Source: an uncultured Actinomycetes bacterium (lineage in GTDB: Bacteria; Actinomycetota; Thermoleophilia; Gaiellales; JAICJC01). Taken from it: a stretch of 64,000 nucleotides of DNA. Positions 2,592 to 63,761 of this stretch are shown here, piece by piece (the first letter of the stretch is position 1; each line of letters starts with the position of its first letter). The stretch spans positions 19,408 to 83,407 of the forward strand of contig CAVSFZ010000012.1 of the NCBI GenBank assembly GCA_963727235.1. Reading direction: 5' to 3'. Position numbers and translations under genes: made by a program. The notes below the pieces were generated by a model, which saw only the letters and a program-made list of their open reading frames with translations, was not told the origin of the DNA and did no database searches.

Positions 2592-2624
2592 GTGAATAAT
2601 TGGTGCCTGGCACCAATTATTCAC
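2592..2624. repeat. 33-bp perfect palindrome, TT/AA subtype (putative REP-like element / bidirectional terminator)
   Basis: Sequence gtgaataattggtgcc-t-ggcaccaattattcac. The two 16-nt arms are exact reverse complements. It overlaps the upp stop codon (TGA, 2621-2623). Confidence 0.9.
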
Positions 2625-3247
2625 TTGGTGCCGAAGAGGCGGTCGCCGGCATCGCCGAGGCCGGGCAGGATGTAGCCGTTGGAGTTCAGGCCGGAATCCA
2701 CCGCGACCGTGTACACCGTCACGTCGGGATGCGCGGCGGCCACCCGTTCGAGCCCCTCGGGTGCGGCAACAATCGAGAGCAGGCTCATGCGGCGGGCTCC
2801 CTGGCGAGCGCATTCGGTCAGCGCCGCGGCGGCCGACCCGCCGGTGGCGAGCATCGGGTCGAGCATCAGCACGTCGCGTTCCTCCATGTCTCCCGGCAGC
2901 TTGCTGTAGTACTCCACCGGCTGCAGGGTGTGTTCGTCGCGGTAGAGGCCGACGAACCCGACCCGGGCGACCGGGATCAGATCGATCACGGTGTCGAGCA
3001 TGCCCAGCCCCGCCCGCAGCACCGCCACCACCGCCACCTTCTTGCCCGAGATCCGGGCCACCTCCGCCGTGTCCAGCGGCGTCTCCACGGAGGCCGGCTC
3101 CAGCTCGAGGTCACGGGTGGCCTCGTAGGCGAGGAACGCTGACAGCTCGCCCATCAGCTGGCGGAAATCACGAGTGGTGGTGGTGCGATCGCGCAGCAGC
3201 CCGAGCTTGTGCAGGGCAAGCGGGTGATCGACGACGACGAGCGGCAC
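2621..3247 (-). CDS. upp: uracil phosphoribosyltransferase
   Basis: 208 aa with a full-length Upp-like sequence (VLRAGLGMLD, MLDPMLATGGSA, YILPGLGDAGDRLFGTK). Confidence 0.95.
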   Translation of the reverse strand: MPLVVVDHPLALHKLGLLRDRTTTTRDFRQLMGELSAFLAYEATRDLELEPASVETPLDTAEVARISGKKVAVVAVLRAGLGMLDTVIDLIPVARVGFVGLYRDEHTLQPVEYYSKLPGDMEERDVLMLDPMLATGGSAAAALTECARQGARRMSLLSIVAAPEGLERVAAAHPDVTVYTVAVDSGLNSNGYILPGLGDAGDRLFGTK

Positions 3248-4537
3248 TCAGAGCTCGGGATAGCCGTGCATGAACGCCGGGTAGAGCGGACGCGCGGCCA
3301 AGAGCTCGAGCGTGCGCTCCCGCAGACGGTTGAGGTCGGCCGCCTGGTCGAGCGTCTCCAAGATGATCGCGCCCACCTCGCGCATGTCCTCCTCGGTCAA
3401 CCCCCGCATCGTTACCGCAGGGGTGCCGATGCGCACACCCGAGGCAATCGTGGGCGGGCGCTCGTCGTAGGGCACCGTGTTTCGGTTGACGGTGATGGCC
3501 ACCTGGTCGAGCCGCTCCTCGGCGTCCTTGCCCGACCACTCGGTGTTGCGCAGGTCGAGCTGCAGCAGATGCACATCGGTGCCTCCGGTGAGCAGCTCCA
3601 AGCCGCCGTCCATAAGCGTCTCTGCCAGCGTCTTGGCGTTGGCCACGATCTGCTGCTGGTAGGCCTTGAACGCGTCCGAAGCCGCCAGCTTGAAGCACAC
3701 CGCCTTGGCCGCCACCACGTGGCACAACGGCCCGCCCTGAAGACCAGGGAACACGGCCTTGTCGACCGCGGCGGCATGCTCGGCGGTGCTCAGGATCACG
3801 CCGGAACGGGGCCCGGCCAGCGTCTTGTGGGTGGTGGACGTGACCACGTCGGCATGCTCCACCGGGTTGGGGTGAAGCCCGGCTGCAACCAGCCCCGCGA
3901 AGTGCGCCATATCCACCATCAGGAGCGCCCCCACCTCGTCGGCGATCTCACGGAACACGGCCGCATCGATCACCCGCGGGTACGCCGATGCACCGGCCAC
4001 GATCAGCTTTGGCCGGTACTCCTTGGCCAGCCGCCGCACCTCGTCGAAGTCGATCCGCGAATCCTCCCGGCGCACGCCGTAGGCATGCACGTCGTACAGG
4101 CGCCCGGAGAAGTTGACCTTGAGGCCGTGGGTGAGATGGCCGCCGTGATCGAGCCGTAGCCCCAGAATCGGGTCGCCGGGCTTGATCAACGCGAAGTACG
4201 CGGCCTGGTTGGCCGGGCCGCCGGCGTGCGGCTGGACGTTCGCGTGCTCGGCGCCGAACAGCGCCTTGGCCCGATCGATCGCCAGCTGCTCGACCTCGTC
4301 GATCCACTCGCAGCCGCCGTAGTAGCGCTTGCCGGGGTAGCCCTCGGCGTACTTGTTGGTCAGCACCGACCCGACCGCCTCCAGCACCGCCGGCCAGGTG
4401 AAGTTCTCGGACGCGATCAACTCGAGCTGGGTTCGCTGGCGCCCCAACTCCTTGTCGATCAGCGCCGCAACGGCGGGATCCGTCTCTGCCAGGCCGGCGA
4501 CCTGGAACGACGTCAGCATCTGTTCTGTGGTGGCCAT
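3248..4537 (-). CDS. glyA: serine hydroxymethyltransferase
   Basis: 429 aa with [28 protein letters not shown] and [14 protein letters not shown] (PLP-Lys region). Confidence 0.95.
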
Positions 4538-4570
4538 GCCTGCCTCCTGAATCGCGAACGTCGACCGACT

Positions 4571-5158
4571 CTAACGCACCGCAGCCAGCACGGCCTCAAC
4601 CCCCGGACCGTCTCGCAGCACCACCGGTTGATCGCCGGTGACGTCGATCACCGCGGAGGGCGCGCCCGGCAGCGGGCCGCCGTCGATGGCGATCGCGGCC
4701 GCCTCCAGCAGCTCCGCCGGGATCTGGTCGAACGCCGCCGGCGCCGGCTGACCGCGCAAGTTCGCACTGGTGGCCACAAGCCCCCCGACAGCGTCGGCCA
4801 GCGCGGCCACCTCCGCCGGCAGCTGCGGTACCCGCACGCCGATGCGGGTGGGGTCGTCGCCGCACACATGGGCAAACCGCCGTCCCGGATTGGAAATCAC
4901 CAGCGTGATCGGCCCGGGCAGCACGCTCGACAGCAGGCCGATGCGGCCGCTGGCCTCCGGCACGGCATCGGCGACGAGCGCGCCGACCGATCCCAGCATG
5001 ATCGCCGTCGGCTGGGTTGCGGGCCGTTGCTTGAGCGCGTACAGCCGCTCCACCGCGGCCGGCACGGCGGCGGCGCAGGCGATCCCGTAGACCGTGTCGG
5101 TGGGCAGGATCGCAAGCTCGCCCGCAAGCAGCAACGCGACCTGCTCGGCGCGGCTCAC
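4571..5158 (-). CDS. tsaC: L-threonylcarbamoyladenylate synthase (TsaC/YwlC type)
   Basis: C-terminal 195 aa of ORF 4571..5503 (LPTDTVYGIACAA..., TSANLRGQPAP). I chose the GTG start at 5158 because it makes a GTGA overlap with the prmC stop. The upstream part of the ORF is Arg/Gly-rich and lies inside prmC. Confidence 0.8.
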   Translation of the reverse strand: MSRAEQVALLLAGELAILPTDTVYGIACAAAVPAAVERLYALKQRPATQPTAIMLGSVGALVADAVPEASGRIGLLSSVLPGPITLVISNPGRRFAHVCGDDPTRIGVRVPQLPAEVAALADAVGGLVATSANLRGQPAPAAFDQIPAELLEAAAIAIDGGPLPGAPSAVIDVTGDQPVVLRDGPGVEAVLAAVR

Positions 5159-5990
5159 GGACGCCGCCCCGTGATGAATCGCTCGATCCCGGCAAAATCG
5201 TCGCGCACCCCGATGTCGGTGTAGGCCTCCGCGGCCAACGCGCCGGCCACGGCACCGGCCTGGCCCGCGCCACACTCCAGCGCGAGCAGCCCGGCGGGGG
5301 TGAGCGCAGGCGGCGCCAACCGTACCAGCGCCAGCAGCAGCTGCAATCCGCCCGGCCCGGGGGTGGTGGCGACGCGCGGCTCCCACAGCCGCACCTCCGG
5401 CTCGAGCGTGTCCAGCTCGGCAGCGGGGATGTAGGGGGGGTTGGACACGATCAGATCGAACTGCCGCCCCCCCACCGCATCCAGCAGGTCTGACTCGAGC
5501 CACTCGACCTCCAAACCAAGATCGGCGCCGTTGGCCCGCGCCAGGTCGAGTGCGCCCGGCGAGATGTCAGTCGCCGTCACCCGCGCCGCCGGCAGCTCCT
5601 GCGCTATTGCCAGCGCAATCGCACCCGACCCGGTGCCCACATCCAGTACCGCCGGCGCCGGCACCGTCATCAAGAATTCCAGGCAGACATCCACCAGCTC
5701 CTCGGTCTCCGGCCGGGGGATCAGCACTCGCCGGTCGACCGCCAGGTCGAGACCGCGGAAGCCCCATCGGCCAAGGATGTAGGCGACCGGCTCGCGCCGG
5801 CTGCGGCGCTCCACCAGCGACCCGATCGACCCCAACTCGGAGGCGGTCAGCACCCGGGCGTGCTGCGAATACACCTCGCTGCGGGAGAGGGAGAGGGCGT
5901 GCCCGGCAAGCAGCTCGGCGTCCAGCCGAGGGCTGGGGCTGTGGTCGGAGAGCGCGCCGGTGGAGCTGACGATGACCTCGCCGAGGCTGG

Positions 5991-5994
<4 letters not shown>
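5155..5994 (-). CDS. prmC: peptide chain release factor N5-glutamine methyltransferase
   Basis: 279 aa with the SAM motif VLDVGTGSGAIA and the catalytic NPPY (VSNPPYIP). It overlaps the prfA stop. Confidence 0.9.
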
Positions 5995-7061
<1,067 letters not shown>

Positions 7062-7086
7062 CGCCCTGGATCGTACTCACGAGCAG

Positions 7087-8603: not shown

Positions 8604-8623
8604 GGAGCCATCGGCACGAATGC

Positions 8624-8830
8624 CTATGCGGTTGACCGCGCCTGGCGGCGACGAAACCGCTCGACCCGTCCACCGGTGTCCACCAGCTTCTGCTTCCCGG
8701 TGTAGAACGGGTGGCAGTCGGCGCAGATCTCGACATGCAGATCTGGCTTGGTGGCTCGGGTGACGAAGTCATTCCCACACGAGCAGTGCACGTGGGCGAC
8801 GACGTAGTTTGGGTGAATATCCGGCTTCAT
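8624..8830 (-). CDS. rpmE: 50S ribosomal protein L31
   Basis: 68 aa: MKPDIHPNY...CSCGN...[13 protein letters not shown]. Confidence 0.95.
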
Positions 8831-8838
8831 CTCGATCC

Positions 8839-9923: not shown

Positions 9924-11621
9924 ATGTCGACTCCCCGCCGGCCATCCGACTATCCACCACCGGTTCAAATCAACGAGTTCGTGTGCGCACCCGAGGCCGC
10001 CGAGGACGAGCGCATCGATGTGGGTGTGCTGTTCGTCGGCGGCGGCCCGGCCGGCCTGGCAGGGGCGATCCGGCTGGGACAGCTGCTGGCGGCCGACCCC
10101 GCCACCGCCGAGCAGCTGGGCGAGGTGCCGGTGGCGGTGCTCGACAAGGGCCGGGTGATCGGCGCCCACCTGCTCTCGGGCGCTGTCGTCAATCCTTCGG
10201 CGCTGCGCGACCTCTTCCCGGACACACCGTTGGAGCAGCTGCCCAGCTTCGGGCCGGTGAAGAAGGAGTCGGTGTTCATGATGCGCGAGGGCTTTGCCGC
10301 GCACATCCCCACTCCTCCGCCGTTTCACAACAAGGGCAACTGGATCTTCTCGCTGTCCCAGCTGGGCCGGTACATGGGCGAGCAGGCCGAGGAGCTCGGC
10401 GCGATGCTGCTGCCCGAGACCGACGCCCAGAAGCTGCTGGTGTCTGACGGCGCGGTGCGCGGTGTGATGACCGGGGACAAGGGCCTCGACCGCGATCGGC
10501 AGCCGGGATCGAGCTACGAGCCCGGTGCCGAGATCCACGCTCGCGCCACCGTGCTTTCGGAAGGCACCCAGGGCCACCTGTCACTCGCGGCCGCGGAGCA
10601 CTTTGGCCTGCACCGCCGGAACCCTCAGATCTACTCGCTCGGGGTGAAAGAGGTCTGGCGGGTGGCCAAGCCGCTGGATCGAGTCGTGCACACGCTGGGA
10701 TGGCCGCTGCGGGCGTCGGCCAAGTCAGGTGAAAGTGGCGGGTCGTTCATCTATCCGATGGGCGAGGACATGGTCGTGATCGGATTCGTGGTCGGCCTCG
10801 ACTACCACGACGCGTCGCTGTCGCCGCACGACCTGCTGCAGCAGTTCAAGACGCACTCGCTGATCCGGCCGCTGCTGGAAGGCGGTGAGCGGATCGCGTG
10901 GGGCGCCAAGACCATTCCCGAGGGCGGCCTGCTGTCCGTGCCTGATCGGCTAAACGTGCCGGGCGCGGTGATCACCGGCGACTCGGCCGGATTCGTCAAC
11001 GTCCCCAAGCTGAAGGGCGTTCACTACGCCATGCGCTCGGGCATGCTGGCCGCCGACACGATCTACGAGCAGCTCAAGGCGGGAGCCGACCCAGCAGCTC
11101 CGGGGGCGCTCCAGGGATACGACCGGCGGGTGCGCCAGAGCCATATCTGGCGCGACCTGCACAAGGTGCGCAACATGCGCCAGGCGCTCAACCGCGGCCT
11201 GTTTCTGGGTGGCGGCCTGGCCAGCGCCATGGATCTCACCCGCGGCGCGTTCCCCGGCGGCAACTTCAGCGTCAAGCGCGACGCCGAAGCGGCACTCACG
11301 ATCGGGCCTCGCGACTATCCGGCGCCGGACGGCAAGCTCACCTTCGACAAGCTTTCGAGTGTGTTCCTGTCGGGCAACCGCACTCGCGACGACCAGCCCA
11401 ATCACGTCCGCATCGCCCATCGCGTGCCGCGCGAGGTGGGCGAGGCCTGGGTGGCGATGTGCCCGGCCCAGGTGTACGAGATCGCCGGTGACGCCGGGGA
11501 TGGGATCGTGGAGGTGGAGCTGACCCCATCCAACTGCGTTCAGTGCGGAGCGATCACCGCCAAGGGCGGCCGCCTCACCCCGCCCGAAGGCGGTAGCGGC
11601 CCCGAGTACTCCAACATGTGA
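9924..11621 (+). CDS. electron-transfer flavoprotein:quinone oxidoreductase (ETF-QO)
   Basis: 565 aa with an FAD motif [11 protein letters not shown] and a C-terminal ferredoxin-like segment (CPAQVYE...NCVQCGAI). It neighbours etfAB. Confidence 0.85.
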
Positions 11622-11687
11622 GGCTGGTCCGCGGCGGTTTTGGCGGCGTCCTGCGCCTCAGGGCGCCAGTCGTGATAGACGCTGGTG

Positions 11688-11720
11688 GTGAATAATTGGT
11701 GCCAGGCACCAATTATTCAC
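11688..11720. repeat. 33-bp perfect palindrome, TT/AA subtype
   Basis: Sequence gtgaataattggtgcc-a-ggcaccaattattcac. It is intergenic between the convergent ETF-QO and etfA genes. Confidence 0.9.
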
Positions 11721-11733
11721 GGTGAGGCTTGGG

Positions 11734-11764
11734 GTGAATAACGGTGCCTGGCACCGTTATTCAC
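11734..11764. repeat. 31-bp perfect palindrome, C/G subtype
   Basis: Sequence gtgaataacggtgcc-t-ggcaccgttattcac. It contains the etfA stop (TGA, 11761-11763). Confidence 0.9.
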
Positions 11765-20114: not shown

Positions 20115-20441
20115 ATGGCCGGCGGCATGCTGGCGCTGGCGGTGGCGATCGCGATCGGAGTCGATGACACGGCGGTGCTTACCGTCGCGCTGTCGGGCGC
20201 GACCAGCGCTGCGCTGGGGTGGCGCATGAGCAGGCTGCGCCCGGGCGCTCTCCAGAATCTGTACGGGTGGGCGTGTTGCATCTTCGGCGCAACCACCGCA
20301 GGCCAGGGCTACCTCACGCTCGATCTGGGCGCCACCGGAGCGCCCAGGGTGGAAGCGATGCTGTGGATCGTCGCGGGGCTGATGGTGATCGGCGGAGCCA
20401 CCGCCACGATGCTGCTCAAGCCCGTCGCAGCTCGTGAATAA
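20115..20441 (+). CDS. small hypothetical membrane protein
   Basis: ATG 20115 lies 2 nt after the MFS stop (MAGGMLALAVAIAIGV...). There are about three hydrophobic segments. The stop TAA (20439-20441) lies inside the palindrome. Confidence 0.45.
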   Translation: MAGGMLALAVAIAIGVDDTAVLTVALSGATSAALGWRMSRLRPGALQNLYGWACCIFGATTAGQGYLTLDLGATGAPRVEAMLWIVAGLMVIGGATATMLLKPVAARE

Positions 20442-20466
20442 AAGGTGCCTGGCACCTTTTATTCAC
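20434..20466. repeat. 33-bp perfect palindrome, AA/TT subtype
   Basis: Sequence gtgaataaaaggtgcc-t-ggcaccttttattcac. It contains the stop codons of both convergent flanking CDSs. Confidence 0.9.
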
Positions 20467-29942: not shown

Positions 29943-31229
29943 ATGTTCTACCGCGCCCGCTTTCGCCTGACCGCATGGTTCGTCGTCGTCATGGCTGCAT
30001 TCGTGACCGTGCTCGGCGGGGCGGTCTACTACGTCGTCCAGGATCAGCTGCGGAAGCAGGTGGACGATGGCGTTCGCAAAACCGCATTTCGCGCCTCGCG
30101 GGATGTGCACAACGATTACATCAACTCAGGAAGGTCAACCGCGATCGACTATTCGGCCGATGCCGACATCCAAGAGCTCGCCGACGGAGGCCTGTACAAG
30201 CTGACGGTGGTACCACCGCCCTACGGCTCGGGGCTGCTGGGGCGAAACGCCGAGGAGGCCGGCCTGCCGTACGCACAAGGCGTGCTGGCGGCGCTTCAGA
30301 ACGGCCGGGACATGAGCTCGGTGCACGTCGGCCAGGGATCCGTGCGGATCTACTCGGTGCCGGTGGCCGACTCCCAAGGCGTGTTCGCGGTGGTGCAGGT
30401 GGCCCGCTCCACCCTCCCCGAGCAGCAGTCGCTGAACAAGCTCTTGATCGTGCTGCTGGTGGGCGGAGTGGCCAGCGTGCTGGTGGCCGCAGTCGGCGGC
30501 TGGTTCCTGGCCGGAAAAGCGCTCGCACCGGTGCGCGAGGCATTCGATCGCCAGCACGCGTTCGTGGGGGACGCGTCGCATGAGCTGCGCACCCCGCTGG
30601 CCGTGATCCGCGCCAACGCCGAGTACCTGCAGGCCAGCCAGCCGGACTCGGTCGAGATCGCCGACATCGTCAGCGAGACCGACCGGCTGTCCGCCCTGGT
30701 CGATTCGCTGCTGGCGCTGGCCCGCGGCGGGCGCGGCGACCGCCCCCAGCCGGACGTGTTCGACCTGGGGTCGGTGGTGGAGCAGTCGGTCGAGGCCATG
30801 ACCGCCCTGGCAGCCGACAAGTCGGTCGACCTGCGGGTCGACGCTGCCCCCGGGCTGCACATCGAGGGCGATCGCGAGCAGATCCGCCAGCTGGTGGTGA
30901 TCCTGGTGGACAACGCGCTGCGCTACACCCCCTCCGGCGGATCGGTGGCCGTGATCGTCGGTAAAGCGTCGAACGACGCCGCGCTGGAGGTGCGAGACAC
31001 CGGGATCGGCATACCCCGCGAGGCCCAGGATCACGTGTTCGAGCGCTTCTACCGTGCCGACGAGGCCCGCAACCGCGACTCCGGCGGAGCCGGCCTGGGA
31101 CTGGCGATCGCCAAGCAGCTGGTCGAAGATCACGACGGCCGCATCTCGCTCGAATCGGTGCCCGGCGAAGGCTCCACCTTCACCGTGCGGCTGCCGCTGG
31201 CCAGCGCCATAGCCGACGCCAAAGCCTGA
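29943..31229 (+). CDS. membrane sensor histidine kinase (HAMP/HisKA/HATPase)
   Basis: 428 aa with two TM segments and the H-box [16 protein letters not shown]. The N and G boxes are [15 protein letters not shown] and GGAGLGLAI. Confidence 0.9.
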
Positions 31230-31230
31230 G

Positions 31231-31263
31231 GTGAATAAAAGGTGCCAGGCACCTTTTATTCAC
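31231..31263. repeat. 33-bp perfect palindrome, AA/TT subtype
   Basis: Sequence gtgaataaaaggtgcc-a-ggcaccttttattcac. It begins 2 nt after the kinase stop (TGA 31227-31229) and ends 27 nt upstream of the MCC-beta start. Confidence 0.9.
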
Positions 31264-33650: not shown

Positions 33651-35359
33651 TCGCCAATCGCGGCGAGGTCGCCGTGCGCGTGATCCGGGCCTGCCGCGAG
33701 CTGGGGATCGAAGCCGTCGCAGTCCACCTCCCCGGAGAGGCCGGCGACCTGCACGTGCAGTTGGCTGATGCCGGTGCGGAGATTCCCTCGTTCCTCGACC
33801 CCGACGCGATTCTGGGCGCCGCGGAGGCACTCGCCGCAGACGCCATCCACCCGGGGTACGGCTATCTGGCCGAGAGCCCCGACTTCGCCGAGCGCGTCGC
33901 CGGTGCCCGCATCGCGTGGGTCGGGCCGCCGGCGGCGGCGATGCGCGCGAGTGGAGACAAGCTGGCCGCGCGACGGCTGGCCGAAGCCGCGGGAGTGCCG
34001 GTTGTCCCCGGGTATGCGGGCATCGATCTGACCGACGAAACCCTCGCGGCCGAGGCCGAACGAGTCGGATTCCCGCTGCTGGTCAAAGCCGCCGGCGGCG
34101 GAGGGGGACGCGGGATCCGCCGGGTCGCGGGGGCCGCCGACCTGCCCGCGGCGCTGGAGGCGGCCCGGCGCGAGGCCAAGGCGGGCTTCGACGACGAGCG
34201 GGTGTACCTGGAGCGGGAGCTCGACGCCGCCCGCCACGTGGAGATCCAGCTGCTGGCCGACCGCCACGGCAACGTGATCCACCTGGGCGAGCGCGACTGC
34301 TCGGCGCAGCGGCGCCACCAGAAGATCGTGGAGGAGGCTCCCTCCCCCGCCGTCGACGGCGAGTTGCGAGCGGCCCTCGGCGACGCCGCCGTGGCGATCG
34401 CGCGCGCGGCCGGCTACGAGAGCGCCGGCACCGCCGAGTTCCTGCTCTTGCCCGACGACAGCTGGTACTTCCTGGAACTGAACGCCCGGTTGCAGGTGGA
34501 GCATCCCGTGTCGGAGCTGGTGACCGGCATCGACCTGGTACGAGCCCAGCTCGAGATCGCCCGCGGTGAGCGCCTGGAGTGGAGCCAGGCCGACATCGCG
34601 CCCACCGGCCACTCGATCGAATGCCGGCTGTACGCGGAGGATCCGGCGGCCGGGTTCGTGCCCTCACCCGGCAGGCTGGTGCGGTTCGAGATCCCGCCGT
34701 GGCCGGGTGTGCGCATCGACACCGGCGTGCGGGTGGGCGATCACGTCGGCATCCACCACGATCCGTTGCTCGCCAAGGTGATCGCCCACGCCGAAGATCG
34801 CGACGCCTGTATCGAGCGCATGGCCGCGGTGCTGGCCGAGACGGTCGTGCTCGGGGTCTCCACCAACCTGGGGTTCCTGCGCTGGCTGCTGATCCGGCCC
34901 GAGTTCATGAGCGGCGATGTCGACACCGGCTTCGTCGATCGACGCTGGAGCCCAGATCTGGTACCCGAGCTGCCCGCCGAGGTCGCCCGCTCGGCCCGGG
35001 CGGCGATGCTGCCGGCCGGACCGTGGCGCGACTACGGCACGGCTGGCACCACCGCGGTGACGGCGGCCGGCGGGTTCGTGCAGCACGATGGGTGGCAGTA
35101 CACACTCGAAGACGACGACGCTCCCTCAGGTTCGTCCGGCGTGGCCGGGTCGCTGCAGGCGCCGATGCCCGGCTCGGTGCTGCGTGTCTCGGTCGCCGTC
35201 GGTGACCCCGTCACCGAAGGGCAGGAGCTGGTCGTGATCGAGGCCATGAAGATGGAGGTGGCCGTGGCCGCTCCCCGCGACGGCGTCGTGCAGGCGGTCA
35301 ACACTGCCGTCGGAGCCCAGGTGACCCGTGCCCAGACTCTTGTCGAGCTGGGTGAATAA
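33623..35359 (+). CDS. methylcrotonyl-CoA carboxylase alpha (biotin carboxylase + BCCP) subunit, liuD-like
   Basis: Starts at ATG 33623 ([23 protein letters not shown]). It has an ATP-grasp region and the biotinylation motif IEAMKMEV near the C-terminus. The stop TAA (35357-35359) lies inside the palindrome. Confidence 0.85.
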   Translation: MGSAIDRVLIANRGEVAVRVIRACRELGIEAVAVHLPGEAGDLHVQLADAGAEIPSFLDPDAILGAAEALAADAIHPGYGYLAESPDFAERVAGARIAWVGPPAAAMRASGDKLAARRLAEAAGVPVVPGYAGIDLTDETLAAEAERVGFPLLVKAAGGGGGRGIRRVAGAADLPAALEAARREAKAGFDDERVYLERELDAARHVEIQLLADRHGNVIHLGERDCSAQRRHQKIVEEAPSPAVDGELRAALGDAAVAIARAAGYESAGTAEFLLLPDDSWYFLELNARLQVEHPVSELVTGIDLVRAQLEIARGERLEWSQADIAPTGHSIECRLYAEDPAAGFVPSPGRLVRFEIPPWPGVRIDTGVRVGDHVGIHHDPLLAKVIAHAEDRDACIERMAAVLAETVVLGVSTNLGFLRWLLIRPEFMSGDVDTGFVDRRWSPDLVPELPAEVARSARAAMLPAGPWRDYGTAGTTAVTAAGGFVQHDGWQYTLEDDDAPSGSSGVAGSLQAPMPGSVLRVSVAVGDPVTEGQELVVIEAMKMEVAVAAPRDGVVQAVNTAVGAQVTRAQTLVELGE

Positions 35360-35382
35360 CGGTGCCTGGCACCGTTATTCAC
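35352..35382. repeat. 31-bp perfect palindrome, C/G subtype
   Basis: Sequence gtgaataacggtgcc-t-ggcaccgttattcac. It contains the MCC-alpha stop and the most likely HMG-CoA lyase GTG start (35362). Confidence 0.9.
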
Positions 35383-36214
35383 CGAGACGTCACGGTTGTG
35401 GAGGTGGGGCCGAGGGACGGCCTTCAGAACGAGCCGGTGATCGTGCCCACGGCGGACAAGATCACGCTGGTCGACCGGCTGTCGGCAGCCGGCCTGCCGG
35501 TGGTCGAGGTGACGTCGTTCGTCTCGCCCGCGCTGGTGCCCCAGCTCGCCGACGCGGACCAGGTGCTTGCCGGCATCACCCGCCTCCCGGGGGTGCGCTA
35601 TCCGGTGCTGGTGCCGAACGCCCGGGGTCTTGACCGCGCCCGAGCTGCGGGCGCCACCGAGATCGCCGTGTTCACCGCTGCATCCGACGCTTTCGCCGAG
35701 GCCAACATCGGAGTCACCATCGAGCGATCGCTCGAGATCTACCGCTCAGTGGTGGCGGAGGCGGTCGCGGCCGGCATGTGGGTGCGCGGATACGTGTCCA
35801 CCGCACTCGGCTGTCCGTATCAGGGCCCGGTCGAGCCGACGGCCGTGGCCGAGGTCACGGAGGCACTCGCCGGCATGGGCTGCTCCGAGATCTCGATCGG
35901 AGACACCATCGGCGTCGGCACCCCGGACACGGTGGCCACGATGCTGGAGGTCGTGCTGGCACGGATCGGATCCAACCGGATCGCGCTGCACCTGCACGAC
36001 ACCGGGGGCAGGGCGCTGGCCAACGTCGCCGTCGGCCTCGATCACGGCGTGCGCGTCTTCGATTCGTCAGTGGCAGGCTTGGGCGGCTGCCCGTTCGCCC
36101 CCGGAGCCCCTGGAAACTTGGCGACGGAGGCGCTGGTCGAACTGCTCCACGGCCGCGGGCTGCGCACCGGCGTCGATCTCGACGCGGTGCGCGCAGCCGG
36201 CGCGGCGCTTACCG

Positions 36215-40812: not shown

Positions 40813-41342
40813 GCCACGTCGACTGGGCGATCGCAGGCGGGGTGGCGCTGGCGATCGCGATCCTGCTGGGCACGATCGTGAACCGGATGGTGCCGCCGGG
40901 GAGCCCTCGGCGGACGGTCGAGGACAGCGCGCTTCTGCTTGGCTGCGCCGCACCCGGGCTGGCCGTGTTCGGCTACTACCTGCATCACCGGCTGCTGGCC
41001 GGCGTCGCCATCATCGCGGTCGCCTACGGCGGGTTTTTCCTGATCCGGATGCGCCAGCTGCGCCGCGCCAATCGCGATGGGGTGCGGCGACTGCTGGGGC
41101 TCGATCGCGATGCGACCTTCGGCGAGGTGATGTCACAGGTGGAGAAGATCGAGCCGCACCCGCTGACCACCACCAGCCGGCTCGTGCTCGCGCTGGCCGC
41201 GGCCATGGTGGTGATCGTGGGCTACGCCCTCGACCGCTTCGACACCGCGCTGATCGGCCTGGCGATCGGAGTGGCCGAGAGCACCGCCCGCCCCGCCTTC
41301 CGCCGCGCCCTGGCAACCAAGGTCCGCGACATCGGCCACTGA
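40809..41342 (+). CDS. hypothetical membrane protein
   Basis: 177 aa with about four hydrophobic segments. It has a 4-nt overlap with the upstream ACAD gene. The stop TGA (41340-41342) lies in the palindrome arm. Confidence 0.5.
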   Translation: MSHVDWAIAGGVALAIAILLGTIVNRMVPPGSPRRTVEDSALLLGCAAPGLAVFGYYLHHRLLAGVAIIAVAYGGFFLIRMRQLRRANRDGVRRLLGLDRDATFGEVMSQVEKIEPHPLTTTSRLVLALAAAMVVIVGYALDRFDTALIGLAIGVAESTARPAFRRALATKVRDIGH

Positions 41343-41381
41343 ATAAAAGGTGCCAGGCACCTTTTATTCACCGTTATTCAC
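41339..41381. repeat. 33-bp palindrome (AA/TT subtype, first base G->C) plus an abutting 13-nt right-arm fragment of the C/G subtype
   Basis: Sequence ctgaataaaaggtgcc-a-ggcaccttttattcac (41339-41371). The fragment caccgttattcac (41369-41381) overlaps the last three bases of the full copy. Confidence 0.85.
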
Positions 41382-42584
41382 CTAATGCATTCGAGTTACG
41401 GGGTAGCCGGCGTCGCGGACGAGCTCGACGATTGAGGCGGCGTGGGATTCGTCGCGGGTTTCCAGCGTCAGCTCGATGCCGGTCTCGGCCACAGCCACGT
41501 CGACACTCTCGCGGTGGTGGGAGATCAACAGGATGTTGACGTGGTTTTGGGCGACCACCTGGAGCAGGTGCATCAGCTCGCCCGGGCGATCGGTCAGCCG
41601 AGTGCGGATCACGAGGTAGCGCCCCGCCACGGTCAGGCCGAAGCGGATCACCTGCATCAGCAGCGGCGTGTCGATGTTCCCGCCCGACAGCACCGCCACC
41701 GCCCGCTTGGCCGAGACCTTGCCGTTGACCAGCGCCGCCAGCGCGACCGCACCGGCGCCTTCGACAACCGTCTTCTCGCGCTCCAGCAGGTGCACGATCA
41801 CGCGAGCGATCTCGGCGTCGGTGACAGTCACGACGTCGTCGACGAGCTCGCGGATCAGGCCGAATGTGATCTCGCCCGGACGTTTTACCGCAATCCCGTC
41901 GGCGATCGTCTGCGTCTGGGGCACCGGAGTGATCGCGCCGTGCTCGATCGAGCTCACATACGGCGCACAGCCGGCCGCCTCCACTCCAATCACCCGGATC
42001 TCCGGCCGCTGAGCCTTGATCGCGCAGGCGATCCCCGACAGCAGCCCACCGCCGCCGAGGGGCACAACCACCGCGTCGACGTCGGGCGCGTCCTCCAGAA
42101 TCTCCAGGCCGATGGTTCCCTGACCCGCGATCACGACCTCATCGTCGAACGGGTGGATCAGCGTCATCCCGGTGCGCGATGCCTCCTGGCGGGCCGCCTC
42201 GACCGACTCGTCCACATCCAGACCGACCAGGTGCACAGTCGCGCCGTAGCCCTGGGTCGCACCCACCTTGGCCAAGGAGGCCGCCTCGGGCATGAACACC
42301 GAGGCCGGCACACCGGCACGGTGGGCGGCCCACGCCACCGCCTGGGCGTGGTTTCCGGCAGACGGCGCCACCACCCCTGCGACCCGCTCCGAATCGCTCA
42401 GAGACTGGATCTTCGTGTACGCCCCGCGCACCTTGAACGCCCCGGTCTTCTGCTGGTTCTCGTGCTTCAGCAGCACCTCGCAACCGGCCAGGCGCGAGAA
42501 CGTCTCCGATCGCAGCAGCGGAGTCCTGTGCACCACGTCGCGAAGGCCCGCGGCCGCCGCCTGGATATGTTCGAGATCCACCAT
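41382..42584 (-). CDS. ilvA: threonine ammonia-lyase (short form with one ACT-like domain)
   Basis: 400 aa with KHENQQKTGAFKVRGA (PLP Lys), GNHAQAVA and a C-terminal regulatory domain. Confidence 0.85.
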   Translation of the reverse strand: MVDLEHIQAAAAGLRDVVHRTPLLRSETFSRLAGCEVLLKHENQQKTGAFKVRGAYTKIQSLSDSERVAGVVAPSAGNHAQAVAWAAHRAGVPASVFMPEAASLAKVGATQGYGATVHLVGLDVDESVEAARQEASRTGMTLIHPFDDEVVIAGQGTIGLEILEDAPDVDAVVVPLGGGGLLSGIACAIKAQRPEIRVIGVEAAGCAPYVSSIEHGAITPVPQTQTIADGIAVKRPGEITFGLIRELVDDVVTVTDAEIARVIVHLLEREKTVVEGAGAVALAALVNGKVSAKRAVAVLSGGNIDTPLLMQVIRFGLTVAGRYLVIRTRLTDRPGELMHLLQVVAQNHVNILLISHHRESVDVAVAETGIELTLETRDESHAASIVELVRDAGYPVTRMH

Positions 42585-56717: not shown

Positions 56718-56735
56718 GGGGTTACGATACCGGCC

Positions 56736-58370: not shown

Positions 58371-59842
58371 TCCTCGAAAACGGGTCGATCTACACCCTCG
58401 ATCCGCGGCTTCCGCGAGTGCGTGCGCTGTCGCTGGCCGGCCGTCTGATCGTCGGTGGGGTGGATGTGCGTGAGGGCGACGACGACAGCGTGGGTCACGA
58501 ACGCGTCGACCTGGACGGCCGCTGTGTGCTGCCCGGCTTCTGTGACAGCCATCTCCACTTCCGATCCTGGGCGCTGGCCCGCCGCGAGCTCGACCTGACG
58601 ACGTGTGGCTCGCGGGCCGAGACACTCGCGCAGGCCGCCGGTGCTGACGGCCAAGGCTGGATCCGCGGCCGCGGCTGGCGGGCGGCCGCGTGGTCAGACG
58701 GTGCCCCGTCGGCGGCTGTGCTGGACGAGGTCACCGGCGAGCGGCCGACGGCGCTCACCGCCCACGACGGCCACACGCTGTGGGTCAACTCGGCCGCGCT
58801 TCGATCGGCCGGAATCGAGCACGCCAGCGGCGTCCTGCAGGAGCGCGAAGCCTGGGCTTTTCCGCTTCCAGAACCGTCCCCGCTGGAGGTCTCGCAGGCC
58901 GTGCGGGCGACCATGGCGGAGGCCAACGCCCGGGGGGTGGTGGCCATCCTCGATCTCGAATTCGCCGGCGGTCGTGATCTGTGGCAGCGGCTGGACGCCG
59001 ACCGGCGCCTGAGCTTGCGGGTGCACATGGGCGTCGCCGCGGAACAGCTGGACGCCGCGCGCTCGCTGGAGCTGCGCTCGGGGTTCGGCAGCGAGCTGCT
59101 GAAGGTGGGGCCGGTGAAGGTGTTCATGGACGGCACGCTGGGCTCGGAAACCGCCTGGATGCTGGACGGATCCGGTCAGGTACTGACCTCTCAGGCCGAA
59201 CTCGAAGAGATCGTCTTGGAGGCGGCGGCAGGGGGGCTGGACGTGGCCGTGCATGCCATCGGCGACGGCGCCAACCGGGCCGCCCTGAATGCCTTCGAGA
59301 CCACCCGCGAGCGGTGGGAGCAGGCGCTCACCCGTCCCCGGATCGAGCATGTCCAGTGCCTCGACGACGCAGACCTGGAGCGGTTTGCCGGGCTCGGCGT
59401 GATCGCCTCGATGCAGCCCAGCCACGCCACCTCTGACCGCGACGTGGCCGACCGGCTGTGGGGTGAGCGGGCAGCCTGCGCGTATCGCACCCGCGACCTG
59501 CTCGACTCGGGCGCGCATGTCGTGTTCGGCTCCGACGCCCCGGTGGAGCCGCTCGACCCACTGGCGGGCATCCATGCAGCCGTCCATCGCACTACCGACC
59601 AGCGCGACCCGTGGTACCCGGAACAGCGAATTCCGGTGGCCGACGCAGTGCTCGGCTTCACGGCGGCGGGAGCCTACGCCGTCGGCGACGAGCGCCGGCG
59701 CGGGCTGCTGCTGCCCGGCTACGCCGCCGATCTGGTGGTGCTCGACACCGACATCATCGCCGAGCCGGAGCGGATCTCCGAGGCCCGGGTGGAGGCCACC
59801 ATGCTGGCCGGACGGTGGGTGCACGGCGCTCCGCCGTGGTGA
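58367..59842 (+). CDS. metal-dependent amidohydrolase (YtcJ-like), paralogue of the preceding gene
   Basis: The GTG start at 58367 makes a GTGA overlap with the upstream stop. Motifs are LPGFCDSHLHF, AVHAIGDGA and GSDAPVEP. Confidence 0.75.
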   Translation: MILENGSIYTLDPRLPRVRALSLAGRLIVGGVDVREGDDDSVGHERVDLDGRCVLPGFCDSHLHFRSWALARRELDLTTCGSRAETLAQAAGADGQGWIRGRGWRAAAWSDGAPSAAVLDEVTGERPTALTAHDGHTLWVNSAALRSAGIEHASGVLQEREAWAFPLPEPSPLEVSQAVRATMAEANARGVVAILDLEFAGGRDLWQRLDADRRLSLRVHMGVAAEQLDAARSLELRSGFGSELLKVGPVKVFMDGTLGSETAWMLDGSGQVLTSQAELEEIVLEAAAGGLDVAVHAIGDGANRAALNAFETTRERWEQALTRPRIEHVQCLDDADLERFAGLGVIASMQPSHATSDRDVADRLWGERAACAYRTRDLLDSGAHVVFGSDAPVEPLDPLAGIHAAVHRTTDQRDPWYPEQRIPVADAVLGFTAAGAYAVGDERRRGLLLPGYAADLVVLDTDIIAEPERISEARVEATMLAGRWVHGAPPW

Positions 59843-59845
59843 CCG

Positions 59846-60853
59846 TCACTTCTGCAGCTTGGTGCAGGCTGCGCCGCTGGGGTTGTCGAGACAGGCGATG
59901 AACACCTTGGCGACGGCGCTGTATGGGCCGTGGGGATCGTTTGCCAGCACCAGTCGCATCTGCGCGATCGTGTCCTGGCGATCCTTCAGCCAGAAGAACA
60001 GCAGCCCCACGTGGAAACGGATCTCGGCGTTTCGGGGGTGAGAGTGGGCCAGGGTCATCAGGTTGCCGAGCGCGACAGCTGTGTTCTCCTTGTCGAAGCC
60101 GAGCACGTTTGAGGCCACCACCGGGGCGATCGCCCCCGGGGCAAGGCTCTGAGCGCGCTGGGCGGCGGCGATCGCCTTGGCCCGATCGATGCCCTGCAGC
60201 TTCCACGCCAAGTCGAGCCACGCGGTGGCGTCGCCGGGGTGTCGCTTGACGGCTGCCTGCAGCTGAGCCAGCGAGCCCTTGGGCGCGGTCCCGGCAAGCG
60301 TATAGCTCGGATATCCCGGGAACTCCTTGTAGTTCAGGAGGTTGTCGGCCTCGGTGCCGTAGTAGCCGTACATGTCAGCGTGTTTGACGTGCTCCAGGCT
60401 TGCCACCGAGTCCTGCACCTGCCCCGCCCAGAACTGGGCGATGCCGAGCGCAAGACCGACCGCCAGCGAGTTCTGCGGCAGTTGCTCGAGCGCGTCGATC
60501 GTCTGCTGCCGCCGGGCCATGGTGTCGGTGGCCATCAACTCGGCCACCCGGATCCGCACGTCGCCTGCTGGCAACAGCCGGCGGGCAGCGTCGGCCACGG
60601 CTGCGGGATCTTGAGGGTCGGCGGTGTTTCCGCCGGGAAGCTTGATCACAGCCGGCGGCAGCCCGCTCAACGGATGGACGGCTGGGGCCGCTTTGGTATC
60701 TGATCCCGCGGTCATCCACACCACCCCAGCGACCGCCAGTCCCACCCCAGCGGCAACGCCCACGAGCACCATCAGACGGCGCTTGGACAGGCCGGGAATA
60801 CCGGTACCCGGGGGCCCGTTTAACTCATTGACGGCGGAGGGTTTTGGATCCAT
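59846..60853 (-). CDS. hypothetical membrane-anchored protein with a helical-repeat-like ectodomain
   Basis: 335 aa with a single TM (LMVLVGVAAGVGLAVAGVVWM) followed by an alpha-helical-looking region. I did not recognise a family. Confidence 0.45.
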   Translation of the reverse strand: MDPKPSAVNELNGPPGTGIPGLSKRRLMVLVGVAAGVGLAVAGVVWMTAGSDTKAAPAVHPLSGLPPAVIKLPGGNTADPQDPAAVADAARRLLPAGDVRIRVAELMATDTMARRQQTIDALEQLPQNSLAVGLALGIAQFWAGQVQDSVASLEHVKHADMYGYYGTEADNLLNYKEFPGYPSYTLAGTAPKGSLAQLQAAVKRHPGDATAWLDLAWKLQGIDRAKAIAAAQRAQSLAPGAIAPVVASNVLGFDKENTAVALGNLMTLAHSHPRNAEIRFHVGLLFFWLKDRQDTIAQMRLVLANDPHGPYSAVAKVFIACLDNPSGAACTKLQK

Positions 60854-60932
60854 TCGCTGGCTATACTGAGAAGCAGAGCACGCATTTTCGGCCCGCGCCT
60901 CGGCGACTGGGCAGGTTGGAACCGAAGGGTAG

Positions 60933-62138
60933 GTGAAACAGGTGATCTCAGCACGCGATTACCTGGCGAAGGCACGTGGTGAGATTCGTGAGGAGACGGT
61001 GCAGGAAGCCGCCGAGCGGCTCCAGCAGACGCCCCCTCCGGCACTGATCGACGTTCGCGAACGCCATGAGTACGAGCAAGGATTCATTCCGGGGGCGATC
61101 CACATCCCCCGTGGGTTCCTCGAGTCCCGCATCGAGCGAAACGTGCTCGAACGGTCGACTCCGATCGTGATCTATTGCGCCAGCGGAGAGCGCTCGGTGT
61201 ACGCCACCAAGACGCTCAACGATCTCGGCTACAGCGACGTCGTCTCGATGAAGGGCGGCTTTGCCGGCTGGAAGGAGAACGGCCACGAGTGGAAGGTGCC
61301 GCGGGCACTCACACCCGAGCAGTACGAGCGCTATAGCCGGCATGTGCTGATTCCCGAGGTTGGTGAGGAAGGGCAGCTCAAGCTGCTCGACTCCAAGGTG
61401 CTGCTGATCGGCGCGGGCGGGCTGGGCTCGCCGGCGGCCGTGTATCTGGCCGCAGCCGGAGTCGGCACCATCGGAGTGATCGACGCCGACGTCGTGGACG
61501 TCTCCAACCTCCAGCGCCAGATCGTGCATACGGTCGATCGGGTGGGGATGAACAAGGTCGACTCGGCCGAGATCGCGATCAAGAGCATCAACCCCGAGGT
61601 CAACGTCGTCAAGTACACCGAGCGGCTGACCTCCGAGAACGTGCTTTCCGTGATCACTGGGTATGACGTGATCGTGGACGGCACCGACAACTTCCCGACG
61701 CGCTATCTGCTGAACGACGCCAGCCTGGTGGCCGGCATCCCCGTCGTGCACGGATCGATCTACCAGTTCGAGGGATCGGTGACCGTGTACAAGCCGTATG
61801 AAGGGCCGTGCTACCGCTGCCAGTATCCAGAGCCGCCGCCACCCGAGCTGGCGCCGTCGTGTGCCGAGGGCGGAGTGCTGGGGATCCTTCCCGGCGTGAT
61901 CGGCTCGCTGCAGGCGACCGAGGCGGTCAAGCTGCTGCTCGGCATCGGCAACCCGCTGATCGGCCGGCAGCTGCGCTACGACGCACTCGAGATGGAGTTC
62001 GTCGAGCTGAAGATGCGACGCGATCCCGACTGCCCGGTGTGCAGCAAGGATCCGTCCCAGATCGAGTTCATCGACTACGAGCAGTTCTGCGCGCTACCCT
62101 CCCGGGCTGCTAACCCCCCGAAGGAGGCAGTAGCTTGA
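60933..62138 (+). CDS. moeZ: MoeB/ThiF-type adenylyltransferase fused to an N-terminal rhodanese domain (MoeZ-like sulfur-carrier activator)
   Basis: The rhodanese domain has an active-site Cys (IVIYCASGERS). It is followed by the ThiF fold (VLLIGAGGLGSPAAVYLAAAGVG) and CxxC pairs (CYRC...CPVC). Confidence 0.8.
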   Translation: MKQVISARDYLAKARGEIREETVQEAAERLQQTPPPALIDVRERHEYEQGFIPGAIHIPRGFLESRIERNVLERSTPIVIYCASGERSVYATKTLNDLGYSDVVSMKGGFAGWKENGHEWKVPRALTPEQYERYSRHVLIPEVGEEGQLKLLDSKVLLIGAGGLGSPAAVYLAAAGVGTIGVIDADVVDVSNLQRQIVHTVDRVGMNKVDSAEIAIKSINPEVNVVKYTERLTSENVLSVITGYDVIVDGTDNFPTRYLLNDASLVAGIPVVHGSIYQFEGSVTVYKPYEGPCYRCQYPEPPPPELAPSCAEGGVLGILPGVIGSLQATEAVKLLLGIGNPLIGRQLRYDALEMEFVELKMRRDPDCPVCSKDPSQIEFIDYEQFCALPSRAANPPKEAVA

Positions 62139-62416
62139 GCACGGTTCGAATGCCCCCGATTCTGCGCCAGGCGGTCGGCGGCGCCCGCGAAGTCGACGCC
62201 TCGGGCGCGACTGTGCGGGAACTGCTGGGCGACCTCACCACCCGGTATCCGGCCATCAAGGGTCACCTGCTGGACGATGGCGGCGATCTCAACCGGTTCG
62301 TGAACGTGTACGTGAATAACGAGGACGTACGGCTTGGCGATGGTCTCGAGACCGCGGTGGGGCCCGATTCGACCGTGATCGTGCTGCCCGCCATGGCCGG
62401 CGGAGCCGCCCGCTGA
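62135..62416 (+). CDS. cysO: MoaD/ThiS-family sulfur-carrier protein (CysO-like) with a GG-AAR C-terminus
   Basis: 93 aa with a TTG start overlapping the moeZ stop (TTGA). It resembles my recollection of M. tuberculosis CysO (..PTIL...GG...FVN.YVN.EDVR...LPA.AGG). It ends in AMAGG followed by AAR. Confidence 0.75.
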   Translation: MSTVRMPPILRQAVGGAREVDASGATVRELLGDLTTRYPAIKGHLLDDGGDLNRFVNVYVNNEDVRLGDGLETAVGPDSTVIVLPAMAGGAAR

Positions 62417-63372
62417 TGAGCTGTCTCAAGGTCGAACGCGGAGCGGCACTCTCGGCAGTGGGCAATACGCCGCTGATCGAGCTCCCGCGGATGGCACCCC
62501 ACGAGGGTGTCAAGATCTTCGCCAAGCTCGAGGAGCAGAATCCCACCGGCTCGGTCAAGGACCGGGTCGCACTGCAGATGGTCGAGGTGGCCGAGGAGTC
62601 GGGCGAACTCCAGCCCGGTCAGCAGATCCTTGAGCCCACCTCGGGCAATACCGGCATTGCTCTGGCCATGATCGGCAAGGTCAAGGGCTACCCGGTCAGC
62701 GTGGTGATGCCGGAATCGGCGACACCCGAGCGGGTTGAGTTGCTGCGGATGTACGGGGCCAACATCATCTTCTCGCCCGGCAATCTCGGATCGAACGGGG
62801 CGGTGGCCAAGGCCCGCCAGATGGCGGAGGCCGATCCCAGCCTGTTCATGCCGTTCCAGTACGCCAACGAGGCAAACCCCGCCGCCCACTACTGCGGCAC
62901 CGCGCTCGAGATCCTTGACCAGGTACCCGACGGGCGCGTCGATGCGTTCGTGGCGGGCCTCGGCACCGGCGGCACGTTGATGGGCTGCGGGCGCCGCCTG
63001 CGAGAGTCCAACCCGACGGTGCAGATCGTCGCCGCCGAGCCGCTCCAGGGCGATCCGGTGATGGGCCTTCGCAGCCTCGAGGACGGCTATACGCCACCGA
63101 TTCTGGACATCACCCAGCTCGACCGTAAGGTGCTGGTGTCAAACGGCGAGGCGGTGCTGGCCTTGCGCAAGCTGCTCGACCTGGAAGGCGTCTTCGCCGG
63201 CGTCTCGGCCGGAGCCGCGCTGGCGGTGGCCCGCAAGGTGGCCGACGAGATGGTGGAAGGAAACGTGGTCGTGCTGTTCGCCGATGGTGGCTCCAAGTAC
63301 ATGAGCGCCGGCCTCTACACCACTCCCACCGAGCAACTCGAACGCGAGATGGAAGAGCGCGTCTGGTGGTGA
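62416..63372 (+). CDS. cysM: cysteine synthase B-type (CysM, thiocarboxylate-dependent by context)
   Basis: 318 aa with NPTGSVKDR (PLP Lys) and TSGNTGIALA. The ATG overlaps the cysO stop (TGATG). Confidence 0.85.
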   Translation: MSCLKVERGAALSAVGNTPLIELPRMAPHEGVKIFAKLEEQNPTGSVKDRVALQMVEVAEESGELQPGQQILEPTSGNTGIALAMIGKVKGYPVSVVMPESATPERVELLRMYGANIIFSPGNLGSNGAVAKARQMAEADPSLFMPFQYANEANPAAHYCGTALEILDQVPDGRVDAFVAGLGTGGTLMGCGRRLRESNPTVQIVAAEPLQGDPVMGLRSLEDGYTPPILDITQLDRKVLVSNGEAVLALRKLLDLEGVFAGVSAGAALAVARKVADEMVEGNVVVLFADGGSKYMSAGLYTTPTEQLEREMEERVWW

Positions 63373-63761
63373 TTCCGGCGGACGTGCGCGACGCAATCGT
63401 CGCCCATGCCCGCGCCGGACTCCCGAACGAGGCGTGCGGGATCCTGGCCGGAGTGGATGGGCGCGTGGAGCGCTTCTTCCCGGCTGAGTCGGACGAGCCC
63501 AGCCCCTATTACTACCGGATCGAGTCGCGCGACCAGATCCGGATCATGAACGAGATCGACGACGCCGGACTGGATCTGATCGGGATCTATCACTCGCACG
63601 TCTCTTCGCCGGCGTATCCCAGCCGCACCGATGCCGAACAGGCATTCTGGCCCGACGCGGTGTATGTGATTGTCTCCCTGGCGGGCGCCGAGGCCGACGT
63701 CCGGGGCTATCGAATCGCCGACATGCTCGCCACCGAAGAGCCGCTCGAGATCAGTGAATAA
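63366..63761 (+). CDS. mec: JAMM/MPN+ metalloprotease (Mec-like)
   Basis: 131 aa with NEACG and the JAMM motif YHSHVSSPAYPSRTD. It overlaps cysM by 7 nt. The stop TAA (63759-63761) lies in the palindrome arm. Confidence 0.8.
   Translation: MVIPADVRDAIVAHARAGLPNEACGILAGVDGRVERFFPAESDEPSPYYYRIESRDQIRIMNEIDDAGLDLIGIYHSHVSSPAYPSRTDAEQAFWPDAVYVIVSLAGAEADVRGYRIADMLATEEPLEISE

Follow-up and report, generated by a model that had tools for sequence, protein, structure and literature searches.

A stop-bearing palindromic repeat at gene 3' ends in an uncultured Gaiellales/Thermoleophilia lineage, probably a REP-type family

Why should the stop codons of several genes lie inside copies of one short repeat? 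This question is raised by a 64,000-nt stretch of DNA (hereafter the window) from an uncultured Actinomycetes bacterium of the Thermoleophilia, order Gaiellales (GenBank assembly GCA_963727235.1, contig CAVSFZ010000012.1, positions 19,408 to 83,407, forward strand). A sequence-only reading of the window had placed the stops of seven coding sequences (CDSs) inside the arms of a palindrome and an eighth, that of a histidine kinase gene, 1 nt before a copy. It had proposed that the element either re-defines C-termini or lies at pre-existing stops, and had compared it with the mycobacterial interspersed repetitive units (MIRUs). The eight stops are where it put them. All seven open reading frames (ORFs) end at the codons concerned, and their reading frames have a third-position G+C content (GC3) of 0.78-0.91. 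Pfam models identify Upp (covered to the last position of the model, with the protein ending FGTK), EtfA, the biotin carboxylase/BCCP subunit, the JAB/Mec protein and the histidine kinase, and independent gene calls from public records, in relatives that are 92% identical, give MCC-alpha and the kinase these same stops. We consider it likely that the palindrome is a repetitive extragenic palindromic (REP)-type family of an uncultured Gaiellales/Thermoleophilia lineage, whose spread, placement, stop supply and hairpin would be accounted for as set out below.

The unit is a near-perfect palindrome of 31-33 nt, (G)TGAATAA-N1-2-GGTGCC-W-GGCACC-N1-2-TTATTCA(C), in which the ends are formed by an AT-rich motif (GTGAATAA/TTATTCAC) and a variable spacer of 1-2 nt leads to the GC-rich core GGTGCC-W-GGCACC. 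The window, which has a G+C content of ~69%, contains nine full palindromes, two degenerate copies and one half copy (Table 1), and GTGAATAA occurs in it 19 times against the 0.08 expected from shuffles. The spacers of the window are TT, AA or C in the left arm, matched by AA, TT or G in the right; each subtype is represented by three copies, with complementary arms every time. An exact-pattern scan of a species-level genome collection extended the sample to the window plus 89 loci (~0.76 Mb) with at least 120 copies; comparison loci are labelled by L-numbers. Among the matches listed, the palindrome occurred only in metagenome-assembled genomes (MAGs) labelled uncultured Actinomycetes (of the Microflora Danica series), Gaiellales or Thermoleophilia. 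Five spacer subtypes (C/G, AT/AT, AA/TT, TT/AA and CC/GG) are found in this sample, with full complementarity between the arms in ~106 of 120 copies, and the central base is A or T in all 120. Its orientation relative to the gene, A in 43 cases and T in 25, is too weak a bias to indicate any direction. Conservation ends at the outermost G/C just outside TGAATAA, which is G in 79% of all arms, and a weak G/C preference is seen one base beyond. On non-coding sides G fills this outermost position in 84% of cases and C in 4%. Where the TGA of an arm serves as a stop, the shares are 66% for G and 30% for C, and there the base acts in part as the third position of the last host codon.

As the sequence-only reading had observed, two frames of each arm are closed on either strand, one by TGA and the other by TAA, which leaves the third open. 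The use of these stops was analysed in 109 copies (218 arms) from the window and related Gaiellales/Thermoleophilia MAGs, with genes called by a codon log-odds model trained on long high-GC3 ORFs and each arm positioned with reference to the gene closest to it. In 73 of the 218 arms a flanking CDS has its stop inside the arm, 44 of them using the TGA (arm positions 2-4) and 29 the TAA (positions 6-8); any other single stop offset accounts for at most four cases. At least one stop is supplied by 63 of the 109 copies, and two stops by 10. When copies were placed at random within the intergenic span plus 10 nt into the genes (2000 trials), 8.8 +/- 3.2 such overlaps resulted, with a maximum of 21, against 70 observed; the overlap first noticed in the window thus lies beyond chance. 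Read-through in the open third frame is seen in only two ORFs, and only two copies lie inside ORFs. Where the TAA is used, the final GAA codon is preceded by NGT in 22 of 29 cases (GGT in 14), so that these proteins end in Gly/Arg/Ser-Glu; the three examples of the window, ARE, LGE and ISE, had already been recognized as ending in x-Glu.

The placement of the copies is equally biased. Arms face a gene 3' end in 163 cases and a 5' end in 49, and copies occupy 52 of 137 convergent intergenic regions (38%), 34 of 461 tandem ones (7%) and 4 of 97 divergent ones (4%). They occur singly or in groups: a dimer of a TT and a C copy with a spacer of ~13 nt recurs in at least 11 loci, and clustered copies have unrelated sequence between them. 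In RNA folding the unit forms a stem of 15-16 bp with a 3-nt loop, at -22 to -29 kcal/mol and with z-scores of -5 to -8 relative to shuffles. An Rfam scan of the entire window gave no family match. The hairpin differs from a canonical intrinsic terminator, in which a U-tract follows a GC-rich hairpin, in that its U-rich segment sits within the stem. Given that copies favour 3' ends and convergent pairs and that the unit is symmetric, the hairpin most likely serves transcript ends in both directions, as a stabilizer or as a terminator without a U-tract.

The relationship to REP elements is indicated by transposase genes. In a motif scan of all the sequence analysed, Y1/HUH transposase genes (PNHYHL…Y..NP) were found only in Gaiellaceae that lack the element, and one of them, used as query, recovered RAYT loci, among them L291 (gene 1434-2221). 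Homologues of the L291 protein carry PF01797, and several are named REP element-mobilizing transposase RayT by JGI. The L291 gene is flanked by TGAATAAATCGGGCCAGGCCCTGTGTATTCA upstream and by TGAATAAAACGGGCCTGGCCCGTTTTATTCA downstream, the latter including the transposase's own TGA stop. L291 was compared with seven homologues, giving eight distinct RAYT genes in 11 loci (L291 and L333-L342) with a conserved order of M20 peptidase, RAYT, and MetH or DUF4389. In the seven homologues a GTGAATA(A/G)…TTATTCAC palindrome is found upstream in all and downstream in all but one (L337, upstream only). The flanking palindromes have GTGAATAA/TTATTCAC arms and cores that read CGGGCC, GGGGTC or GGGGCC depending on lineage, complementary in both arms. 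The stop of the RAYT gene itself lies inside an arm in seven of the eight, three times as TGA and four times as TAA, and those that stop on TAA finish in x-Glu. For other Thermoleophilia RAYTs the flanking palindromes have the GGTGCC-W-GGCACC core but GC-rich arms. The REP-RAYT-REP arrangement is the signature of REP systems and, since sister palindromes flank a RAYT, the element is to be classed as REP-type rather than as a MIRU. A metagenome scan with a RAYT alignment returned only distant RAYTs among the matches listed, none of them flanked by the element, and only ordinary genes, no transposase, lie between element pairs less than 2.5 kb apart.

A REP-type family of this kind would be spread in trans by a RAYT-type Y1 transposase, by analogy with its sister elements, and its copies have built up at gene 3' ends, chiefly between convergent genes. 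Since TGA and TAA close two frames of the arm on either strand, a copy that is flush with an ORF end, or reaches a few bases into it, still terminates that ORF. Insertion beside a stop, or small junction deletions, would leave the protein unaltered in the TGA frame or make its last two residues x-Glu in the TAA frame, and such copies would persist. Once transcribed, a copy is predicted to fold into a very stable hairpin that would form a 3'-end structure for genes on either side, and where the stop lies inside the stem a terminating ribosome would have to open the entire 5' arm. By analogy with E. coli REPs near stops, such a hairpin may impede the terminating ribosome. According to the account given in PMC12306157, a REP that lies less than 16 nt from a stop in E. 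coli causes ribosomes to stall and reduces expression (Liang, Rudd and Deutscher 2015). Both are stable hairpins within 15 nt of a stop; in E. coli, however, the REP lies downstream of the stop, whereas here the hairpin begins on or before it and the element contains it.

Several observations weigh against this account. The loci were chosen for containing the element and thus form an ascertained sample, and gene ends come from the codon-model caller of this analysis rather than from curated annotation. Neither the window nor the ~0.76 Mb of element-bearing loci yielded a RAYT flanked by the exact subtype of the window (TGAATAA arms, GGTGCC core), and in one element-bearing genome the syntenic M20-peptidase locus was found without a RAYT. 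A consensus terminator scan of the window did not call the palindrome copies. Furthermore, the element has no GTAG or CGTC tag and instead carries GTGAATAA/TTATTCAC on its two sides.

What the element does to protein ends was assessed in fifteen orthologous comparisons, for which the closest relatives of the window are MFD08988.bin.2.30 (Upp 96% identical) and MFD09368.bin.1.228 (90%). Seven of the ends are identical, six lie within one residue in length and two, with differences of 3 and 8 residues, show larger changes; in 13 of the 15, therefore, the stop has kept its native position or moved by no more than one codon. Two of the identical ends belong to a convergent pair, in which the empty site CGGT TGA G CTA GAC corresponds to CGGG TGA-ATAA…TTAT-TCA GAC. 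At another site, GGG/TCA GGC, the element was acquired 5' of the TCA. The membrane protein with its stop at 41342 ends in IGH-TGA, and L250 has no element at that TGA. A dehydratase ends in RMH* both in L250, where the TGA lies inside an arm, and in the window, where a TAG adjoins the arm. A protein ending KKT* has the arm flush with its end in one of two lineages and 3 nt further downstream in the other. One ending QYE* has the native TAC GAG TAG, with the element after it, in one lineage, and TAT GAA TAA, within the arm, in another. Among the altered ends, MCC-alpha has changed from DD to GE while remaining at 578 aa, its length in all the closest homologues. Another protein has changed from TGS to AGE within one residue in length, and one site has LLD in a lineage that uses the TGA frame and LSE in one that uses the TAA frame. 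A further comparison shows NC* becoming NCE*, and the Upp end GTR* becomes GTK* or GTKR*. The EtfA end agrees within one residue; it was compared with relatives at 74-79% identity, the two closest MAGs not being among the matches listed.

Stop position is thus nearly always retained. The TGA frame usually leaves the protein end unaltered, and the TAA frame replaces the last two residues with x-Glu unless the protein already ended in Glu. Both of the initial proposals are thus right in part: re-definition of C-termini applies to the TAA frame, where the last two codons are element sequence, and location at a pre-existing stop describes most TGA-frame cases.

The junctions allow a further alternative to be weighed, namely that the element homes to stop codons. 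A unit ATAA…TTATTCA would be inserted 3' of a TGA in the style of IS200/IS605, and the target TGA would complete the palindrome. In four filled/empty pairs the empty site has a TGA exactly where that of the arm lies, with junctions GGG/TCA GGC (L073), CAC TGA/GGC (L250), CGC TGA/CCA (L091) and GGT TGA/G (L038), and none of these four junctions, out of five orthologous sites for which an empty allele exists, shows a direct target duplication. The high share of C as outermost base on TGA-stop arms relative to non-coding sides would likewise be expected if that base belonged to a host codon. RAYTs are members of the same HUH/Y1 superfamily as the IS200/IS605 transposases, with a related fold (PF01797); these elements also have hairpin ends and no target duplication, and the way in which they insert beside a fixed short sequence could serve as a model for the flush TGA junction. 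They differ in carrying their own transposase, in having two different subterminal hairpins and in their length of ~0.7-2 kb. However, TGA makes up 64% of all stops in this sequence, so that four TGA targets out of four are not significant, and a target preference for TGA was rejected as indistinguishable from this background. The 29 TAA-frame stops, at which five element bases overwrite coding sequence, are left unexplained. Copies also occur 0-10 nt past stops (as in TAG-GTGAATAA and TGA-G-GTGAATAA). Moreover, of L025 and L032 one has the element flush and the other has it 3 nt downstream, with a 7-nt length difference; of L087 and L026 one has it flush and the other directly adjoining a TAG. 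Such pairs, read from aligned sequence, indicate that small junction deletions probably follow insertion; these are tolerated because the arm closes two frames. In view of the TGA background and the TAA-frame cases, homing is not claimable even though the four junctions fit it, and we keep it as a tentative alternative. The wider proposition, in which an enzyme homes to TGA at ORF ends, the host stop completes the palindrome and the second repeat of the window (described below) possibly behaves likewise, we judge unlikely. If homing were true, transcript-end hairpins would be installed exactly at translation stops, and unwinding of the stem by the ribosome would set expression.

Filled sites also appear to have changed after their occupation. 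The site 31231-31263 carries an AA copy in the window and a C copy in L251 (7620-7651; a 92% relative) and is empty in L250, while 41339-41371 carries an AA copy in the window and a C copy in L251 (17722-17793). The relative that is empty at the first site is a more distant one; at the second it carries an AT-subtype copy, at the opposite end of the spacer. That both arms changed together at two sites suggests, on sequence comparison, replacement or conversion between copies. Such turnover bears on the possibility that these are non-mobile bidirectional terminators or 3' stabilizers, hairpins kept or created by selection in which the stops are incidental. The strong 3'-end and convergent-pair biases and the great stability of the hairpin fit this view, as do the UUUUAUU that follows the GC core on both strands (in the AA subtype only) and the scarcity of canonical U-tract terminators, which are no more frequent in the window than at chance level. 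Yet more than 100 near-identical copies of 31-33 nt are present across genomes whose genes are only ~70% identical. Discrete subtypes, recurrent dimers, presence/absence and subtype replacement indicate copying, not convergence, and sister elements flank a transposase. A non-mobile origin is therefore quite improbable; a terminator or stabilizer function is itself compatible with mobility, and the view is a rival only as regards origin.

Alternatively, a dimeric protein that acts as a regulator or organizes the chromosome could bind the palindrome as DNA. This view accords with the perfect dyad symmetry, the two conserved blocks and a core that includes a CCWGG site (Dcm/EcoRII type) and two GGYRCC sites, and E. 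coli REPs are known to bind gyrase and IHF. Against it, promoter-bearing divergent regions are avoided, and spacers of 1-2 nt in five types vary while arm complementarity is kept. Because complementarity is kept and cores co-vary between families, base pairing fits better than a fixed protein contact; an operator site was rejected, and we hold a protein site to be very improbable.

The likeness to MIRUs drawn at the outset was that of a repeat bringing its own stops; MIRUs are likewise actinobacterial intergenic repeats, whose ends can overlap the stop and start codons of adjacent genes. One copy resembles this: in 35352-35382 the arm TAA ends MCC-alpha, and 3 nt past it, in the palindrome core, lies GTG 35362, the start of HMG-CoA lyase in the public gene calls of relatives (L251 11740; L252 7285), although an alternative GTG start exists downstream at 35398. 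If the public lyase start is right, this copy supplies both a stop and a start. Coupling of translation by a MIRU-like intercistronic element is nevertheless extremely improbable and was rejected, since only 34 of the 90 occupied intergenic regions are co-directional and 52 are convergent, sequences between clustered copies are unrelated, this was the one start-in-element case noticed (starts in other copies were not surveyed), and the element is a single 31-33-nt palindrome, not a 40-100-bp tandem direct repeat that lies inside operons and carries small ORFs. Miniature inverted-repeat transposable elements (MITEs) such as Correia/NEMIS of Neisseria are likewise small non-autonomous gene-end repeats and possible terminators or RNA-processing sites, but they are 100-150 bp long with terminal inverted repeats and a TA duplication; Correia elements were rejected as their defining features are not found here, and a DDE-type MITE because the four junctions have no direct duplication and the unit is all stem plus a 3-nt loop.

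Table 1. Palindrome copies in the window and the stops that they supply or adjoin
Feature	Position	Relation to neighbouring genes and remarks
Palindrome, TT subtype (GTGAATAATTGGTGCCTGGCACCAATTATTCAC)	2592..2624	Right arm supplies the upp stop, TGA 2621-2623, minus strand
Palindrome, TT subtype	11688..11720	First unit of the recurrent dimer (TT copy, ~13 nt, C copy); supplies no stop
Palindrome, C subtype	11734..11764	Right arm supplies the etfA stop, TGA 11761-11763, minus strand
Palindrome, AA subtype	20434..20466	Forms the entire spacer of a convergent gene pair
Left arm of the same copy	20434..20466	TAA 20439-20441 is the stop of a small membrane protein
Right arm of the same copy	20434..20466	TGA 20463-20465, minus strand, is the stop of a lipoprotein
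Palindrome, AA subtype	31231..31263	Begins 1 nt past the histidine kinase TGA 31227-31229; a single G separates this TGA from GTGAATAA
Palindrome, C subtype	35352..35382	Left arm TAA 35357-35359 is the MCC-alpha stop; Gly-Glu end encoded by the element
Palindrome, AA subtype	41339..41371	Left arm TGA 41340-41342 is the membrane protein stop, at its native position; outermost base of left arm C (third base of a His codon), consensus G
Half copy (CGTTATTCAC)	41372..41381	What is left of a second copy, of the C subtype, which L251 has intact
Palindrome, TT subtype, right arm TTATTCAT	63754..63786	Left arm TAA 63759-63761 is the JAB/Mec protein stop (…ISE*); first member of the four-copy cluster
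Degenerate copy (GTGAATAACCAGTGCCTGGCAGTTTTTATGCAC)	63814..63846	
Degenerate copy	63852..63880	Left arm GTGAATAA intact; core and right arm decayed
Palindrome, C subtype, right arm TTATTCAT	63915..63945	Last of the four-copy cluster

Two further points concern the copies of the window. The half copy directly adjoins the TAG (41382-41384, minus strand) of the threonine-dehydratase-like gene, a contact missed by the sequence-only reading, and the last four entries of Table 1 make up one cluster, at 63754-63945.

The window also holds a second, unrelated repeat that begins on a stop codon, TGAGGCTGGTCCGCG…CCTGCGCCTCAGGGCGCC, at 11619-11680, where it starts with the stop of ETF-QO (11619-11621). 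It has inverted-repeat-like ends (CCTGAGGC/GCCTCAGG), a short form of ~45-60 nt and a long form of ~190 nt, and is found elsewhere in L250 (16861-17020), L002, L012, L014, L055 and L070. Its leading TGA is the stop of the upstream gene in six of seven clear members, and its usual place is between a stop and a palindrome copy. In more distant Gaiellales MAGs (L003 4350-4970, L061 and L062) we observed tandem units of ~330 nt, with no evident ORF, each comprising one palindrome copy and other conserved hairpins (CACGGCCGCAGGCCGTG, GGGGACATTGCTCGTCCCCC). Gaiellales without the element (L092-L111) have other GC-rich hairpin repeats a few bases past the upp stop (GGGGACAGTCCCC, GGGGCCTGGCCCC, GGGGTCAGACCCC), the cores of which are those of the palindromes that flank RAYT genes. 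In L250, a 76% relative, the HMG-CoA lyase gene is absent and the stops of MCC-alpha and a convergent peptidyl-prolyl isomerase gene adjoin without a spacer (TGA TCA, 11735-11740), which shows how compact gene ends are in this lineage.

How, then, does the family compare with known REP systems? Most REPs, though not all, carry GTAG or CGTC tags, those between convergent genes lie less than 20 bp from both 3' ends, and the ends of GTAG REPs frequently supply the stop codon for ORFs beside them (Di Nocera et al. 2013, PMC3733652). The present family resembles the REP/BIME and RAYT systems of E. coli, Pseudomonas and Stenotrophomonas (SMAG) in being a palindrome of 20-40 bp in many copies, which is extragenic, lies for the most part between genes that converge or run in the same direction, no more than 20 bp from 3' ends, and occurs as singles, dimers and clusters (BIME/REPIN-like). 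As in those systems, the termini supply stops of flanking ORFs, here in about a third of the arms, and sister elements flank a single-copy Y1 transposase gene. It differs in that the terminal motif is part of the stem in both arms, so that the unit is symmetric save for the central W, in that each arm has two stops in two frames instead of one TAG, and in having AT-rich arms in a 69% GC genome. Its host also differs, being of the Thermoleophilia (Actinomycetota), and the 2013 survey of GTAG/CGTC REPs has no mention of Actinobacteria (PMC3733652).

Stop supply by REP termini is thus already published (for GTAG REPs, PMC3733652), and our analysis does not reveal a new kind of system. What differs is the GTGAATAA tag on both arms, the presence of two stops in two frames, the high rate at which they are used, and the host lineage. 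The finding provides clean numbers on how closely repeats are packed against genes, with a third of the arms and over half of the copies ending an ORF, and in the sister families this packing reaches the transposase gene itself. For annotation it means that gene ends, and some x-Glu C-termini, may be encoded by a repeat. The constant GTGAATAA arms and co-varying cores offer a natural series on RAYT recognition. Finally, REP/RAYT biology is extended to an uncultured, soil-abundant actinobacterial order, with an AT-rich, stop-bearing terminal motif.

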